Origin: a virus
Taxonomy: Duplodnaviria > Heunggongvirae > Uroviricota > Caudoviricetes
IMG/VR virus record: IMGVR_UViG_2660238078_000002
Reading direction: 5' to 3' (one strand)
DNA: 4,564 bases
Made by a program: the position numbers and the translations under genes
In this document: positions 1 to 4,439 of the stretch, in pieces
Layout: each line of letters opens with the position of its first letter
How positions within the stretch are numbered: position 1 is the first letter of the stretch
Notes under the pieces: generated by a model
What the model saw: only the letters and a program-made list of their open reading frames with translations
Database searches by the model: none
What the model was told of the DNA's origin: nothing

Positions 1-18
1 ACGAGTATTTTTAGTCAT
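1..18 (-). CDS. 5' end of the next minus-strand gene (MTKNTR...), continuing beyond the left edge; function unknown
   Basis: ATG at 18..16 with AGAGGT (31..26) 7 nt upstream. Only six codons are in the window, so coding status rests on the RBS context alone. Confidence 0.4.
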
Positions 19-98
19 CCTGTTTACCTCTTTCTCAGGAAGTTTAGTCTCCAGGATTCCCGGGGCGGTTCACGTTGGGTTTTTCTGCTCATTATTAG

Positions 99-131
99 CT
101 CCTTCTGATGCCATTCTATTTCAGGAAGGAG
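99..131 (-). promoter_or_regulatory. Inverted repeat / RNA hairpin in the intergenic region downstream of the SLT gene; its 3' arm (on the minus-strand transcript) contains an AAGGAG Shine-Dalgarno
   Basis: Plus-strand ctccttctga (99..108) and tcaggaaggag (121..131) are reverse complements apart from a one-base bulge, with a 12-nt loop (109..120). No U-tract follows on the minus transcript, so it does not look like an intrinsic terminator. Confidence 0.3.
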
Positions 132-143
132 TGTCCGTTAAAC

Positions 144-1874
144 TCAGGCTACCTCAACTCTCTTTTCAATAGGGTCAAGGTTTTTCATCCCGCCAAGATC
201 TTCTGCCACCTGTTTGAGCATTGACCTTGTTGATGGCGCATCAATTTTTGCACCTGCAGGCATCGCCTTTTCAACATTGCGATAAAGCTGGTCGCTTCGT
301 TTCATCAGCGCAGACATTCTTCCATTGACCGTATCAATAAACTTGTCGCTCATACCAAGAGCATCTTTTGCACCGGAAACGCGATCAATTATCTCACCCG
401 CGCCCTGTGCTAGCTGCCTGATTGCTTCATTTTCCTGCACCTGTAGAGCAGAACCCGCACGGGACTTGATTGCTTGCTCAACTGCCTTGTATTGCTCGTT
501 CCCGGAAAAGTGTGAAGGGAGTAATGAATCAACATTAAGCCTTTCAGCAGACTCCAGAACTTCAGCCTGAGGATTGATATCTAGTTCATCAAGCGATGAA
601 GCGAGATTTGGCCTTTTTTGTGCTGCTACTGTGCGAACGACTTCCTCTGGGTTCTTCGTCGCAGGCGTCATTGGTACACCTTGTGCTACTCTTGCCTCTG
701 CGGCATGAACCGCAGGATTTGTTGCTGCAGCGGCATCACCGGAGAATGGTGATGTTTCTGTTGGCGCAGTGGTCGCTCTCTGTGCAGATGTTTTATTGCC
801 ACTAATTATATTTGATGCACCACGAACACCACGGGTAACGCCATTTATCAGGCCATGCGTAGCAATGCTAAGTCCGGCATTAATAGCGGCATTTTCGGCA
901 AAATCACCCCGTTGATTCGCCGCGTCAGCGAGAGAACCAATGACCATGTTTCCAGCTACACCTGCTCCAGGAACAAGATAACCGCCTATTGACTCTCCAG
1001 CTTGCGCGTAGGGGTCTGTCGGTCTGTCTACTGGACGATAAACATCATCCAATACTTTTGGCCCCCCAAGCCCCTGACTGATTGCATTAATCAGACTTGC
1101 GCCACCCTGCAATACGTCAAATGGTATGTTTACCAGACCACGACCAGCCTGTTCTGCAATTTGCCCTGCACTTTGACCACCAGTGAGCCAATCGCCAGCT
1201 TGTTGCATCAATGATGGTTCTTCCCGTGTTGGTGCATTATTGGCCTGATTAACTGTTTGTTGCTGAACAGGTTTCGGTGCGACAGAACTTACGGGTTGAG
1301 GTGGCTGCTGACTGGCTGCCTGCTGCTCAATCTGAGCAAATGGATTATTTGGGTCTGACTGCACACCTGATGCCGATACTTGTTCGGATGACTGTACTTC
1401 CAGTTGTGCAAACGGGTTGTTAGGGTCTTGCTGAGGATGTACCTTTGCAGAGGTGGCGCGCTGTTCGACTGTTGAGTCTGTCACCGGGTCACCAGCCCAT
1501 TGAGCAAAGCGATCATCAACGTAACCGCGGCCTTCAGGTCCTGGCGTATATTCACCACGCTTTGCCTTCATAACGTTGCCGGGACCGTCGTGATAAGCCT
1601 GAAGAGAGTCACGCCAGTTACCAAACTGCTGGTACATCTTTGCCAGATAGCGCGCGCCAGCGTCAGCCTGATATTCGGGGTTTTGCATTTGCTCATCGGT
1701 ATAACCCATATCACGCCATGTCCCAGGCATGACCTGAGTCAATCCTACAGCCCCGGCGGAGCTTACTGCGGCAGGGTTGTAAGAAGACTCCTTGGCACCC
1801 AGTGCAGTCATCAACCCTTCTGGCACACCGTAACGTGCGCCAGCCTGCTCTAACAAATCACGGTAATTAGCCAT
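144..1874 (-). CDS. Lytic transglycosylase (SLT/GH23 family 1) domain protein, 576 aa; probable virion-associated peptidoglycan-cleaving ejection protein
   Basis: N-terminal 100 aa carry the family-1 lytic transglycosylase signature: catalytic-type Glu-Ser (…[29 protein letters not shown]…, Glu codon at 1790..1788) and the AYNAGxG-like motif (AYHDGPGNV). This is followed by a Q/P/S-rich linker with a tandem peptide repeat, a Gly/Ala-rich hydrophobic segment and a charged helical C-terminus. ATG at 1874 abuts the upstream stop. Confidence 0.9.
1332..1427 (-). repeat. Two copies of an imperfect direct repeat 72 bp apart, encoding the in-frame peptide repeat DPNNPFAQ(L/I)E within the SLT protein linker
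   Basis: Plus-strand gcaaatggattatttgggtc (about 1336..1355) versus gcaaacgggttgttagggtc (about 1408..1427). These translate on the minus strand to residues 150-157 and 174-181 of the 576-aa protein. Confidence 0.6.
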
Positions 1875-3206
1875 TTACTGCCCCAAAGATGGAAGATATC
1901 CGTAGCGATTAATGAAGTCGATTGACAGCTCGGGGTGCTGCTTCAGGTAATCTATAGAAGCCTGAGGCGCTTCCACTCGCTTGATACCGTTTTGCTGAAC
2001 GTACTTACCAACCGCCTCATTACGCTTCTGGTTGAGCGTGTTCAGGATGACGCCAGCGTTGCGACGAAAGGACTCCTCGCTCTGCGAGTTCTGCAGCGAA
2101 CCAACAGCCTGGTCGAGCTTTTTGCCCTCGGCATCAGAAAGTGCGCCCATGCCTCGCATGGCCTGAACCGCTGTCAGGTATGCTTGTGATTTAAAGGTAT
2201 CAAGTCGTGCCTGAGTGTCTGCAGCCTGTGAGCCTGGAACGTTGGGGATTACTCCACGTAAGCCTGTAATGCTCTTAAGTGAAGGAGAACTAACGATATC
2301 GTTCAGAGTGAACATGCTGGTTGTGAGGGTGTTGATGCCGTCTTTGTAGCCATCATTTAGCGCTTGCTGCTTCTGCTGCAACTGCTGGTTGTTGGCTGCT
2401 ATGCGGCTCTGTATTTCCTGGCGCTTCAGGTCGTTAGTTTCTGCTGATAGCATCCGGTCAAGGCGCTTATTTTCGTTGTTAATGCGGTTTGTTTCTGCGT
2501 CCAGATTAATGCGCTGCTGACCTAAATTCGCCTGGATATCTTGTCCGCGCATTGTGATTGCCTGATTCCGAGCGGCGGTTTGCGAATCCAGATCCTGACC
2601 GCGCATGGTAACCTGGCGACCCTGCATTTTATCCTGTAGGTCAAAGTATTTTTCGGGCCCGAGACTGTTCATCCCCAGGTGATCGACAAATTCGCCGAAC
2701 TGCCGCGGGTTCTGTTGGTACATCTGAGCGACGTCATGAGGATTAACGCCAACACGAGCTAACTCACCGGCGTTGTTTTGCAGCCATGATTGCATTGCTT
2801 CTGGAGACGATGACGCAAGGCGTGCGCCAGCCGCTAAGGTGCCGATAGAATTACGCTGCTCTTCATCAATGAATCCCATGCCTTTACGAACGGATTCAAT
2901 CTGGTCTGGATATTGAGTAGCCAACTGACGCAAAGCACCGCGATCACCAGACGCATAAGCATTAGCGTACGCCTGCTGAAATTCTTTCTGCCGCTGAGCC
3001 TGCTTTTCCTGCTGAAAAACACCCGCAATACCTGAAAGACCTTGCAAAGCAGTCAGCCCAACATTGTTAGCGCCTGAACGCTCAATATCATTGTTCTGCC
3101 TGATAAGCTGAAGCGTATTGCCGATGTCATTTACGCTCGGAGCGTTTGAGTTGACGCCGCCGATACCAGCCAACAATCCGCCGTTTGTTCCTTGCCAAGT
3201 AGCCAT
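1875..3206 (-). CDS. Phage internal virion/ejection-type protein, 443 aa, Q/N/R-rich with probable coiled-coil centre
   Basis: ATG at 3206..3204, preceded by a purine-rich AAGGGGGAA 2 nt upstream, an unusually short spacer. Long ORF to TAA at 1877..1875, which abuts the next ATG (TAAATG). Central region is rich in Q/N/R/E/L with internal repeats (…TMRGQDLDSQ… / …TMRGQDIQAN…; RINLDAETNRINNENKRLDRMLSAETNDLKRQEIQ). Confidence 0.85.
   Translation of the reverse strand: MATWQGTNGGLLAGIGGVNSNAPSVNDIGNTLQLIRQNNDIERSGANNVGLTALQGLSGIAGVFQQEKQAQRQKEFQQAYANAYASGDRGALRQLATQYPDQIESVRKGMGFIDEEQRNSIGTLAAGARLASSSPEAMQSWLQNNAGELARVGVNPHDVAQMYQQNPRQFGEFVDHLGMNSLGPEKYFDLQDKMQGRQVTMRGQDLDSQTAARNQAITMRGQDIQANLGQQRINLDAETNRINNENKRLDRMLSAETNDLKRQEIQSRIAANNQQLQQKQQALNDGYKDGINTLTTSMFTLNDIVSSPSLKSITGLRGVIPNVPGSQAADTQARLDTFKSQAYLTAVQAMRGMGALSDAEGKKLDQAVGSLQNSQSEESFRRNAGVILNTLNQKRNEAVGKYVQQNGIKRVEAPQASIDYLKQHPELSIDFINRYGYLPSLGQ
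2533..2612 (-). repeat. Imperfect direct repeat 54 bp apart, encoding (V/I)TMRGQD(L/I) twice inside the 443-aa protein
   Basis: ccgcgcat occurs at 2545..2552 and 2599..2606 with similar flanks (cttgtccgcgcattgtgattgcctg versus atcctgaccgcgcatggtaacctggcg). In frame, consistent with a repeated heptad-like segment. Confidence 0.5.
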
Positions 3207-3215
3207 GATTCCCCC

Positions 3216-3981
3216 TTAAAACAACGAGCCAAGCAATCCGATACCAGCACCAATACCAGCGCCCCAAGGCGTTGATGTTCCCAAAAGGCTGGCAAGACCT
3301 GCACCGGCAATCGCACCAGACGTGCCACCGCTAATTGCAGTCTGAAGACTTGATGGTTTATTGGCATTAGCAGCGGCAAGAGCTGCGCTTTGCTGTGCAA
3401 TGCTGCTCATGTTGTTGGCGTACGTCTGCCCGGCGTTTGCCTGACCTTGCAGCGCACCAAGCCCAACGTTTGCCAGATTGTTGTAATTGCTCATCTGATT
3501 TGATAACCAAGACTGACCGAGTGTCGGCGCGATCGTAGCCAGTTGATTGCTTGTGGCTGTCGAACCAAGTCCACCCGTCGCCTCCGCAGCAGCAAGACTC
3601 TGGTANNNNNNNNNNNNNNNNNNNNNNNNNNNNNNNNNNNNNNNNNNNNNNNNNNNNNNNNNNNNNNNNNNNNNNNNNNNNNNNNNNNNNNNNNNNNNNN
3701 NNNNNNNNNNTAGAGTTGTAATACTGATTAAGTGCCTGCCCCTGACCTTCTAAACTGGAAAGGTTCTGAAGCTGGTTAACATACTGCTCCGCAAGAGGCG
3801 TGAACGGAGCAAGGTTTTTCATGATCGTCTGCCACTGCTGATTTTGCAGGTCTGCAGCATACTTCTGGGCTTCTGCTGCATACTTTGCGCTTTTATCAGA
3901 ACTGCCACCTTTCCCGCCTTTTTCAGGGCAATAAGGTTCCTCGCCGCGCAGTTTTCTGCCCAGCTTAAATGCATATAACAT
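3216..3981 (-). CDS. Phage internal/ejection-type protein with a Gly/Ala-rich glycine-zipper-like C-terminus; a single gene interrupted by an N-run (about 255 aa if the gap were exactly 105 nt)
   Basis: ATG at 3981..3979 with GGGAGA 5 nt upstream. N-terminal part MLYAFKLGRKLRGEEPYCPEKGGKGGSSDKSAKYAAEAQKYAADLQNQQWQTIMKNLAPFTPLAEQYVNQLQNLSSLEGQGQALNQYYNS runs into the gap at 3711. Below the gap a different frame is open from 3605 to TAA at 3218..3216 (YQSLAAAEATGGLGSTATSNQLATIAPTLGQSWLSNQMSNYNNLANVGLGALQG...GAGIGAGIGLLGSLF*). The track continuation of the upstream frame below the gap (PESCCCGGDGWTWFDSHK...) is not protein-like. The track's 92-aa ORF (3216..3494) is therefore the C-terminal part of this gene. 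Confidence 0.7.
3606..3710. other. Assembly gap or masked segment (105 N) inside a coding region
   Basis: A run of 105 N directly in the sequence. Protein-like frames on either side differ in phase, so the N-run length is a placeholder and not the true length. Confidence 0.95.
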
Positions 3982-3983
3982 GG

Positions 3984-4439
3984 CTATCTCCCGTGATTCA
4001 GGAAGTCGATTAGTTCTTCGCGTGTGGCGCTGTAAAAAGTCACGTCATCCACGCCTTTGAAGTATTTCTTGATGGTTCCTACACGCTTAAGGCCAATCAT
4101 TGCGCAGTACATCTGACCGTGTCGGAATTTGCGTGCAGCGAACGATGTTACGCACTGAACGGTGGTGTTAGTCAGAATGTATCGCCAGAACGCCAGCCCA
4201 ATTTCCTTGCTGAAGCCGCGAATCTCTGGCAGGTACATGGCGTGGCAATCTAATGTCAGCGGCTGAATCTCCTGATAGTAAACAATGCCGCCAAACTGAC
4301 CGTGCACGTTCACCTCAAAGTAACGGCATTCAGGTTTGTAGTCGTATCCATCACCGTTGTTGCTCCCGGCGATAATGTCAGGGTGATTTCCGACTGCTTC
4401 TATCAGGTCGATGTTTCGCGTTGGTTTGAATGTAATCAT
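3984..4439 (-). CDS. Hypothetical phage virion-module protein, 151 aa (first gene of the putative ejection/internal-protein cassette)
   Basis: The ORF track gives 3984..4442 starting at GTG. I prefer the ATG at 4439..4437, which has GGAG (4446..4443) 5 nt upstream and overlaps the upstream stop. The frame is open to TAG at 3986..3984. Translation MITFKPTRNIDLIEAVGNHPDIIAG... is protein-like; no motif I can name with certainty. Confidence 0.8.
   Translation of the reverse strand: MITFKPTRNIDLIEAVGNHPDIIAGSNNGDGYDYKPECRYFEVNVHGQFGGIVYYQEIQPLTLDCHAMYLPEIRGFSKEIGLAFWRYILTNTTVQCVTSFAARKFRHGQMYCAMIGLKRVGTIKKYFKGVDDVTFYSATREELIDFLNHGR

Follow-up and report, generated by a model that had tools for sequence, protein, structure and literature searches.

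The gene 16 product of phage P22 is a virion ejection protein that leaves the particle before the DNA, associates with the inner membrane and is needed for injection, and gene 16-minus particles were found to display neither potassium release nor DNA injection (PMC10883804). Changes in that protein that permit escape from SieA were located at G532 and P546 of its 609 residues, in what was termed the C-terminal region (PMC10883804). The muralytic activity of the P22 virion was assigned to gp4 (review PMC5380687), and a review published in 2022 further indicated that P22-like phages are without muralytic activity on their ejection proteins.

In phage Sf101, ORF11-13 were termed a DNA injection module, and a holin/lysin/Rz/Rz1 lysis cassette was found to be encoded separately (PMC4159516). 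The product of ORF13 (Sf101_0013, AII27837.1; 911 aa) is annotated as a 'transglycosylase', and that gene is the intact form of the one described here. Fusions of 790-935 aa, in which an SLT (family-1 lytic transglycosylase) domain is joined to a gp16-type protein, are widespread both among the P22-like prophages of enterobacteria and among phage isolates (Sf101, IME10, Huey and Dewey), and the SLT module is approximately 99% identical across the viable phages Sf101, IME10, APC_JM3.2, Huey, Dewey and phiKp_30. The SLT-gp16 fusion is thus already known, near-identical deposits being named either transglycosylase or lytic transglycosylase domain-containing protein. A search of the literature, the scope of which did not extend to Casjens and Thuman-Commike (2011), found no paper that expressly describes a P22-like gp16 with an SLT domain, nor any mutant, assay of activity or proteomic data on virions for an SLT-gp16 protein.

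Genomic setting

The window (the whole stretch of DNA that was analysed, 4,564 nucleotides in length and drawn from the Caudoviricetes record IMGVR_UViG_2660238078_000002) is 100% identical to chromosomes of Shigella flexneri. It belongs to a prophage remnant of approximately 12.7 kb with IS elements on both sides, in which the order of genes is an IS3-family transposase, a 350-aa fragment of a truncated terminase gene, portal, scaffold, coat, gp4, gp10, gp26, gp14, gp7, gp20, a truncated gp16, IS629 and then psiF-phoA-iraP-ddlA. No tailspike, lysis or regulatory genes were found near the gp16-type reading frame in the approximately 12.7-kb remnant, and no holin or spanin neighbour was found in the window. 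An IS-mediated rearrangement may have spared this block of head and ejection genes beside psiF-phoA.

Within the window, genes of the P22 14, 7, 20 and 16 types follow one another on a single strand (Table 1), in the order also found in P22, Sf6 and Sf101, and the TAA stop of the gene-20-type frame directly meets the ATG of the gp16-type frame. The gene-14-type frame corresponds to a 151-aa gene call in S. flexneri genomes, and the gene-7-type frame is interrupted only by a mask of N characters (3606..3710), the unmasked genome containing an intact gene of 230 aa.

Table 1. Features of the window, with positions counted from its first letter
Feature	Position	Strand	Description
IS629 left end within IS600 copy	1..72	minus	continues past the window edge
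IS600 left end	73..156	minus	terminal repeat, then first 7 orfA codons, MSRKTQR
Truncated gp16-type ORF	144..1874	minus	ATG to TGA, 576 aa, uninterrupted
IS600-derived ORF tail	144..156	minus	final base of codon 573, then the EVA codons and TGA stop; read directly
Phage-derived part of ORF	157..1874	minus	codons 1-573 of a 911-codon Sf101 ORF13-type gene
Sf101-type middle segment of gp16	157..815	minus	residues 354-573; 3' end missing
Conserved gp16 core, Gly/Ala-rich weakly hydrophobic block	816..1214	minus	residues 221-353
Q/P/S-rich low-complexity linker, predicted disordered	1215..1499	minus	residues 126-220
Second ten-residue NPF motif	1326..1355	minus	residues 174-183
First ten-residue NPF motif	1398..1427	minus	residues 150-159
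SLT / GH23 family-1 lytic transglycosylase domain	1545..1856	minus	residues 7-110; Pfam PF01464
Glu29 codon, predicted catalytic acid (ES motif)	1788..1790	minus	aligned with Slt70 Glu478
P22 gene-20-type ejection protein gene	1875..3206	minus	443 aa; Inj_translocase E=1e-67; phrog_2534
P22 gene-7-type ejection protein gene	3216..3981	minus	Pfam P22_gp7 E=2e-42, C-terminal part
P22 gene-14-type gene	3984..4439	minus	DUF2824 E=1e-52; 151 aa

Truncation of the gp16-type gene by insertion sequences

The gp16-type reading frame had been described, from the letters of the window, as an entire protein with a helical C-terminal domain, encoded in the last position of its operon. Comparison with intact relatives overturned that description. 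Over residues 1-573 the frame is identical to Sf101_0013 at 566 of 573 positions (99%), with no similarity beyond, and every megablast match to phages and to E. coli prophages begins at base 157 of the window. The intact gene continues past that junction as ...KRVFRAVNPG..., with the E. coli prophage sequence remaining in frame at that point, and every one of the full-length homologues in the alignment runs approximately 220-360 residues past the end of the frame found here.

The sequence on the other side of the junction is that of a mobile element. The 85 bp at bases 72..156 are 100% identical to the beginning of an element that bears the annotation 'IS3-like element IS600 family transposase', and the left end of that IS600 encodes residues 574-576 (EVA) and the stop codon; the frame remains open because the element supplies a stop three codons past the junction. 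The IS600 copy is itself interrupted by IS629 at base 72: bases 1..73 of the window match IS629 at 100%, and the full copy of 1310 bp into which they continue corresponds to elements annotated as 'insertion sequence: IS3 family IS629'. Both ends begin with TG, followed by the start of orfA, and are identical to annotated copies. The arrangement is explained by entry of IS600 at codon 573, followed later by entry of IS629 into that IS600.

The reading frame thus very probably comprises the 5' 63% of the gene that encodes an ejection protein of the P22 gene 16 type with an SLT N-terminus, and is a pseudogene because an insertion sequence (IS600) has cut it. The copy in the window retains 573 of 911 residues; among the 338 that are absent is another Gly-rich hydrophobic segment, at 802-825 in the intact protein. 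With them is lost the C-terminal region that a complete gp16-type protein requires, so that what remains is a fragment of a family member and not a functional one. It cannot be packaged or injected today, and the copy in the remnant is presumably inactive and without expression. Since the 3' end of the frame is artificial, with homology to the 911-aa gene ending at base 157, the supposed 'helical C-terminal domain' is the middle of a 911-aa protein, and the gene appears to be last in its operon only because insertion sequences have replaced everything downstream.

The transglycosylase domain

Analyses of the N-terminal region bore out the SLT assignment made in the original prediction. A search with PF01464 aligned residues 7-110 with positions 2-110 of the 117-position profile, scoring 86.9 bits (E=9.3e-25; curated cut-off, 21.3 bits), and the family motifs are present at E29-S30, G44-LTQVMPGTW and A93-YHDGPG. 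In a phmmer alignment to E. coli Slt70 (PDB 1qsa/1qte), E29-S30 falls opposite E478-S479, in agreement with the earlier nomination of Glu29 as the candidate catalytic residue; GLTQ (44-47) and residues 93-99 are likewise aligned to Slt70, the latter opposite AYNAGPG. Across the alignment of homologues, KES[S/G] is kept in 19 of 19 SLT-bearing sequences, and motifs of the GLMQ and AYNxG types are kept in all of them. Sequence matches of the domain in the PDB included Slt70, MltC and MltE, whereas every NCBIfam equivalog model scored far below its cut-off. Direct reading of the N-terminus revealed no evident signal peptide.

Structure prediction of the full 576-aa frame with AlphaFold2 (from an alignment of 24 sequences) succeeded in part: residues 1-128 were modelled with pLDDT of about 75-88, but the remainder is unreliable (mean pLDDT 47.5 and pTM 0.32 for the whole model), and the model is usable only in the SLT domain. 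The best 41 Foldseek matches in the PDB were all lytic transglycosylases (Slt, Slt70, MltE, MltF and MltD), with E-values of about 1e-3, a modest level that reflects searching with the entire 576-aa model, and the predicted model and these matches point to a goose-lysozyme-like alpha-helical fold. The proposed fusion of such a domain to an ejection-type protein is real, and near-identical genes had already been deposited as transglycosylases. From its sequence, the intact SLT-gp16 protein is predicted to be an active peptidoglycan-cutting enzyme.

Linker, core and middle segment

The earlier outline of the rest of the frame, as a linker, a Gly/Ala-rich block and a helical stretch, agrees with composition, which placed the linker at residues 126-225 and the block at 226-360, and with the model, in which the sequence after residue 420 is mostly helical. 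The linker contains 19 Q, 13 P, 11 A and 11 S per 100 residues, displays pLDDT of 31-57, and carries two copies of a motif, DPxNPFAQ[LI]E, that 15 SLT-bearing homologues retain as a pair (the NPF motif pair). In DNA the two DPNNPFAQ[LI]E copies differ at 10 of 30 nucleotides, so that a peptide repeat is written in diverged codons; a DNA-level search of the linker detected no repeat.

The block that follows identifies the protein, since residues 221-353 are 81% identical to residues 53-189 of P22 gp16 (111/137; BLASTP E=1e-67), and on that basis the frame is of the gp16 ejection protein type. The invariant columns of the alignment lie mostly in this core (Q242, A243, P251, P281, R284, P288, Y289, G313, A318, N320 and A326), precomputed Pfam tables assign both PF26808 (Phage_P22_gp16) and SLT to the protein, and a match to phrog_770, 'DNA transfer protein', spans residues 108-566. 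The core is only weakly hydrophobic (Kyte-Doolittle maximum of 1.2 over 19 residues), which counts against its insertion into the membrane; that role is suggested by its homology to P22 gp16. Beyond it, residues 354-573 are mostly helical in the low-confidence model, and other gp16 types carry unrelated alternative segments in this position.

The same exchange of parts was observed at the N-terminus. One and the same gp16 body also occurs without the SLT module, in proteins of 754-777 aa, behind P22-like or Sf6-like N-termini, and bodies of at least three kinds (797, 875 and 911-935 aa) carry the same SLT module.

Alternative interpretations

Several other readings of the locus were considered. 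That the 576-aa frame is a complete and functional virion protein with a genuine helical C-terminal domain might be argued from its uninterrupted course from ATG to TGA, from an end-to-end match to the 576 positions of the phrog_21143 profile, and from the calling of exactly this product in thousands of assemblies. Those identical copies, however, represent one clonal S. flexneri locus with one IS junction; the final three codons and the stop lie inside IS600, and both the 99%-identical phage gene of 911 aa and all full-length homologues run well past the end of the frame. The junction sequence refutes this reading, to which we assign almost no probability. Labels attached to profiles were similarly responsible for the suggestion of a tail fibre, a tail-tip muralytic protein or a tape-measure-like protein: phrog_21143, phrog_2013, phrog_28504 and phrog_14342 bear tail or tail-fibre names (for example, 'lytic tail fiber protein'), and one PDB match (9b45) is to a tape-measure protein that contains an SLT domain. 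With the exception of phrog_21143, however, the PHROG matches are limited to the SLT domain, while the body is a homologue of the internal ejection protein P22 gp16, and the tails of P22-like phages consist of gp4, gp10, gp26 and the tailspike, each of which is separately encoded; a tail role is very unlikely.

SLT-type enzymes act as endolysins in some phages, and lambda R is a transglycosylase, so that a part in prophage lysis instead of entry might be considered for the domain, particularly as some of its PHROG matches are labelled endolysin. The gene is nonetheless the third of an ejection-protein operon and possesses a gp16 core, and the window has neither a holin nor a spanin beside it. 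For the gene family, the earlier view that this is not a lysis enzyme is upheld, because the lysis cassette of Sf101 is separate and lies elsewhere (PMC4159516), and a lysis function is exceedingly improbable. Finally, the truncated product might have been co-opted by S. flexneri, for instance to serve as an additional enzyme of peptidoglycan remodelling, given that the frame is open and identical in very many assemblies and differs from Sf101 at 19 synonymous and 7 non-synonymous codons. Clonal descent, however, accounts for the identity between strains, and the excess of synonymous changes arose as live phages diverged, prior to the insertion; the comparison of 19 with 7 is uninformative on domestication because the changes are too few and all older than that event. 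The N-terminus is without an evident signal peptide, the phage late promoter and antiterminator that the gene needs are absent from the remnant, and adjacent dead genes are just as intact, all of which leaves co-option with very little likelihood. An ejection protein gene cut by IS600 is the reading adopted in what follows.

Proposed role of the intact family and its significance

The original prediction had envisaged an injected protein that cuts peptidoglycan locally during genome delivery. Because intact SLT-gp16 fusions are common, that functional logic is valid for the intact family, but not for the copy in the window: an ejection-type role is favoured for the former by its gene 14, 7 and 20 neighbours and by its gp16 core, whereas the latter is a 3'-truncated pseudogene. 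The intact 911-aa protein would be packaged in the capsid together with the gene-7 and gene-20 proteins and, after adsorption, expelled through the tail. Its N-terminus would then lie in the periplasm, where the enzyme may cut glycan strands of peptidoglycan locally and let a trans-periplasmic conduit pass, while the Gly/Ala-rich block and the C-terminal part may interact with the inner membrane and give passage to the DNA. As the muralytic activity of the P22 virion was assigned to gp4, and a gp4 homologue is also found in the S. flexneri remnant, the SLT domain may be dispensable through redundancy or, as in T7, required only under some conditions.

Gp16-type proteins would draw on at least three N-terminal modules that can be exchanged for one another, the transglycosylase with its linker being one of them. 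It is possible, although we place it somewhat short of an even chance, that the transglycosylase and the linker with its paired DPxNPFAQ[LI]E motifs form a portable 'wall-breaching' cassette that can take the place of the short module with which P22-type gp16 begins. In that case muralytic ejection proteins would not be missing from P22-like phages as a group, contrary to the 2022 review, whose generalisation is already contradicted by the SLT-gp16 genes in databases; P22-type gp16 would have its N-terminus at the periplasmic peptidoglycan layer, as in the topology of T7 gp16-N; and the paired motifs could act in the manner of the T7 'molecular tape' that follows the LT domain, by binding a periplasmic tube protein. 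The existence of natural SLT-plus and SLT-minus forms of one gp16 body allows them to be compared.

For the window itself, the outcome is chiefly a correction: the reading frame is a pseudogene fragment, produced by nested insertion of IS600 and IS629 in a decayed S. flexneri prophage, and the 576-aa frame is unsuitable either as a complete protein or as a representative of its family.

Comparison with known systems

The closest relative is Sf101 ORF13 (phage APC_JM3.2 and prophages of E. coli carry the same gene), which shares with the window copy its gene 14, 7 and 20 neighbours, the SLT module, the linker, the NPF motif pair and the gp16 core; in IME10, Huey, Dewey and phiKp_30 the SLT module is present at 98.9% identity. 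Phage genes of the Sf101 ORF13 type are complete, reside in viable phages and are followed by the tailspike region, whereas the window copy ends at codon 573, in IS600. P22 gp16 (609 aa; PF26808) occupies the same operon position and presumably has the inner-membrane role in common, but carries an N-terminal module of approximately 50 residues (MKVTANGKTF...) instead of the 220 residues of SLT domain and linker, and over its C-terminal two thirds it shows no sequence relationship to the window protein, a mosaic pattern. A comparison with Sf6 gp13 was dropped as evidence, the similarity being weak and patchy (E=0.017).

The catalytic domain of E. coli Slt70 and MltE/EmtA (GH23) are the best matches in both sequence and fold, sharing the ES, GLxQ and AYxxGxG motifs, but these are cellular housekeeping enzymes, either secreted or lipid-anchored, whereas the domain in the window is fused to a phage ejection protein. 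For such a fusion the N-terminal transglycosylase of T7 gp16 was correctly cited as the functional precedent (PMC8954989). T7 gp16 is the third and largest ejection protein of its phage and begins with its LT domain (catalytic residue E37), behind which lies an extended segment, as here, and local cutting of peptidoglycan during DNA entry would be the common logic; it differs in its length (1318 aa) and its ordered core stack. No T7 gp16 chain was found among PDB sequence matches at E<0.01, no sequence homology to T7 gp16 was detectable outside the LT fold, and the Foldseek match to the T7 core protein 9jyy_I was weak (E=0.014; 168 columns) and ranked below the cellular Slt and Mlt enzymes. 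The window protein is a functional analogue of T7 gp16-N, and not a member of the T7 gp16 family. In SP6, K1E and K1-5, a lysozyme module is carried instead on the gp15/gp20-equivalent protein, and the gp15-like proteins of those phages illustrate that muralytic modules move among podophage ejection proteins; the family described here, in which such a module has been shuffled onto P22-type gp16 as others were onto T7 gp16 or the gp15-like proteins of SP6 and K1E, provides a further example.

Domain content and identity of the open reading frame

The original prediction placed a family-1 SLT signature in roughly the first 100 residues of the open reading frame (ORF), and several searches establish that this signature is genuine and far above chance. 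A Pfam search matched PF01464 (SLT) to residues 7-110 (E=9.3e-25; 86.9 bits, with the gathering threshold at 21.3), and E. coli Slt70 was the top PDB match found by phmmer, with Glu29-Ser30 aligned to the catalytic Glu478-Ser479 of Slt70, GLTQ to GLMQ, and AYHDGPG to AYNAGPG. Only residues 1-128 of an AlphaFold2 model based on 24 homologues were confident (pLDDT about 75-88); the top 41 Foldseek matches of that model in the PDB were all lytic transglycosylases (Slt, Slt70, MltE, MltF, MltD), and a T7 core protein (9jyy_I) followed at rank 42 (E=0.014). The profile search and the structure prediction that had been proposed as checks thus both bear out the assignment, the latter within the confident part of the model. 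The described composition was likewise recovered, as a linker rich in Q/P/S (residues 126-225), a weakly hydrophobic Gly/Ala-rich block (226-360; Kyte-Doolittle 19-residue maximum 1.2), and a region beyond residue 420 that is helical for the most part.

Over residues 221-353, the ORF product shares 81% identity with P22 gp16 residues 53-189 (BLASTP E=1e-67), and the exact protein is annotated with SLT plus PF26808 (Phage_P22_gp16) in precomputed Pfam tables. All of its neighbors in the window lie on its strand, its ATG directly adjoins the gene-20 stop codon, and the gene order, 14-7-20-16, is that of P22 itself. P22 gp16 is one of three virion-borne ejection proteins; it exits before the DNA, is membrane-associated, and is required for DNA passage across the inner membrane (PMC10883804).

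Features of the window and of related genome stretches
Feature	Position	Strand	Basis
ORF, 576 aa, ATG to TGA	window 144..1874	minus	ORF calling
P22 gene 14 homologue		same as ORF	DUF2824, E=1e-52
P22 gene 7 homologue		same as ORF	P22_gp7, E=2e-42
P22 gene 20 homologue		same as ORF	Inj_translocase, E=1e-67
IS629 left end	window 1..73		100% identity
IS600 left end	window 72..156		100% identity
Nested IS elements	window 1..156; L004 (genome stretch with full IS629) 674..2063
Masked bases	window 3606..3710; L005 (unmasked counterpart) 8238..8269		105 N for 32 real bases
DPNNPFAQ[LI]E, residues 150-159	window 1398..1427
DPNNPFAQ[LI]E, residues 174-183	window 1326..1355
Remnant region	L016 (S. flexneri CP034931.1) 379..14223
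Intron reverse transcriptase gene, 502 aa	L015 (S. flexneri CP106857.1) 15757..17265		RVT_1 + GIIM

Truncation by nested insertion sequences

The ORF had been read as a complete protein, and in this respect the prediction fails. Base 157 is where every megablast match between the window and a phage or E. coli prophage starts; the best is Shigella phage Sf101, in which the gene (Sf101_0013, annotated 'transglycosylase') encodes 911 aa, and identity to it (566 of the first 573 residues) ends at codon 573. An intact E. coli prophage reads ...EKRV-FRAVNPGKNG..., where the window reads ...EKRV-EVA-stop. An element with a transposase labelled 'IS3-like element IS600 family' supplies the tail from its left end, and the outermost bases match the left terminus of another, 1310 bp long and annotated as 'insertion sequence: IS3 family IS629'. 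From the break in homology and these end matches, it follows that IS600 landed at codon 573, and that IS629 went later into codon 7 of IS600 orfA. In a 24-sequence alignment, full-length homologues all run some 220-360 residues beyond the window end. Among what was lost is a second hydrophobic segment rich in Gly, at residues 802-825 in the numbering of the Sf101 protein. The full IS629 interrupts an 84-bp IS600 left-end stub at that orfA codon; its far end directly adjoins the chromosomal gene psiF, and therefore the remaining IS600 and the remaining prophage are gone from the site.

A prophage remnant in Shigella flexneri

An exact search located the phage/IS600 junction in Shigella flexneri SFBU1023 and also in ECMA0423, a genome of 4.44 Mb that carries an E. 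coli label. S. flexneri chromosomes are 100% identical to the window outside its masked bases, and the exact 576-aa product occurs in about 1949 blocks of an assembly collection, mostly on 10-20 kb contigs. The gene order in complete genomes (IS3-family transposase, 350-aa terminase fragment, portal, scaffold, coat, gp4, gp10, gp26, gp14, gp7, gp20, truncated gp16, IS629, then chromosomal psiF, phoA, iraP and ddlA) defines a remnant of about 12.7 kb with IS elements at both ends. No tailspike, lysis or regulatory genes were seen within it in complete genomes, and its terminase gene is truncated; the remnant cannot form particles, and this copy of the ORF cannot be packaged or injected.

The size agrees with that of draft-assembly contigs (12.6-12.7 kb) carrying the 576-aa protein. 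In CP034931.1, the upstream IS3-family transposase adjoins the terminase fragment; between the truncated genes at the two ends, each of the nine others is still called full length. Because of the masking, the window shows the gene-7 homologue with an apparent frameshift and 73 nt of excess length; where S. flexneri genomes are unmasked, the gene is intact and encodes 230 aa. Over 2.27 kb, ECMA0423 (CP178302.1) shows 99.5% identity, and despite its E. coli label the strain may belong to the Shigella/EIEC lineage; the junction was absent from 5,426 complete genomes of E. coli and, besides ECMA0423, was found in S. flexneri only. In some S. flexneri strains, a gene for a group II intron reverse transcriptase separates the IS region of the truncated gene from psiF, and another copy is located on the upstream side of the remnant.

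The SLT-gp16 family

Among 5.8 billion proteins searched, 1617 were relatives (E<=1e-5), including SLT plus gp16 fusions of 790-935 aa from E. coli, Cronobacter, Klebsiella, Shimwellia, Serratia and Pluralibacter, most of them already named 'lytic transglycosylase domain-containing protein' by NCBI. These relatives are mosaic: the SLT-plus-linker module (residues 1 to about 205) is joined to three or more bodies unrelated to one another (types of 797, 875 and 911-935 aa), and bodies of the Sf101 type are also found lacking SLT (754-777 aa), following either a P22-like (MMKVTANGKTF...) or an Sf6-like (MAKAWKDVIASPQYQ...) N-terminus. The module is present on gp16 homologues of many prophages and, at 98.9% identity, of isolated phages including Sf101, IME10, APC_JM3.2, Huey, Dewey and phiKp_30, and at 52-62% identity in Skarpretter-like phages. 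The profile phrog_21143 (576 positions) matches the truncated ORF end to end (1365 bits), and its length suggests that the family may have been shaped by the truncated form; its label, 'lytic tail fiber protein', also attached to the Sf101 RefSeq record (NC_027398) in a phage collection, is unsuited to a gp16-type ejection protein.

Judged by sequence, many P22-like phages and prophages do bear a predicted muralytic domain on an ejection protein, in contrast to a 2022 review that describes the ejection proteins of P22-like phages as lacking that activity (PMC8954989, sections 4 and 6). No explicit account of SLT on a P22-like gp16 was found in the literature, and Casjens & Thuman-Commike 2011 may cover it; the gene itself has been in the databases, under a name, since 2014, so the finding counts as already known.

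Probable function of the intact protein

A role in lysis was rejected, as the original prediction had also held, because in Sf101 ORF11-13 form a DNA injection module and a holin/lysin/Rz/Rz1 cassette is separate (PMC4159516). Most likely, the intact protein acts on the pattern of P22 gp16 and T7 gp16: it would be ejected from the capsid and would use its N-terminal enzyme to make a local opening in the murein; the inner membrane would be the site of action of the conserved Gly/Ala block and the C-terminal region. The proposed logic of an injected wall-cutting protein is sound for the gp16-type family, but does not apply to the window's truncated copy in a dead remnant. Because the muralytic activity of P22 virions is assigned to gp4 (PMC5380687) and a gp4 homologue is also present here, the SLT domain may help under certain conditions without being essential.

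The two DPNNPFAQ[LI]E copies in the linker, spaced 24 residues apart, differ by synonymous codons at 10 of 30 nt. Among homologues that bear SLT, the pair is kept in all those of the E. coli/Cronobacter/Klebsiella/Shimwellia type (n=15); those of a second type (n=4, including Serratia and Pluralibacter) instead have two GPWxxY motifs ahead of the SLT domain, and neither feature was found in five of five SLT-less gp16 homologues. In T7 gp16, residues 1-156 form a transglycosylase domain (catalytic E37) that makes up the wings of a periplasmic tunnel and is needed with highly cross-linked peptidoglycan (PMC8954989), and the 'molecular tape' segment of that protein resembles the DPNNPFAQ[LI]E pair in position.
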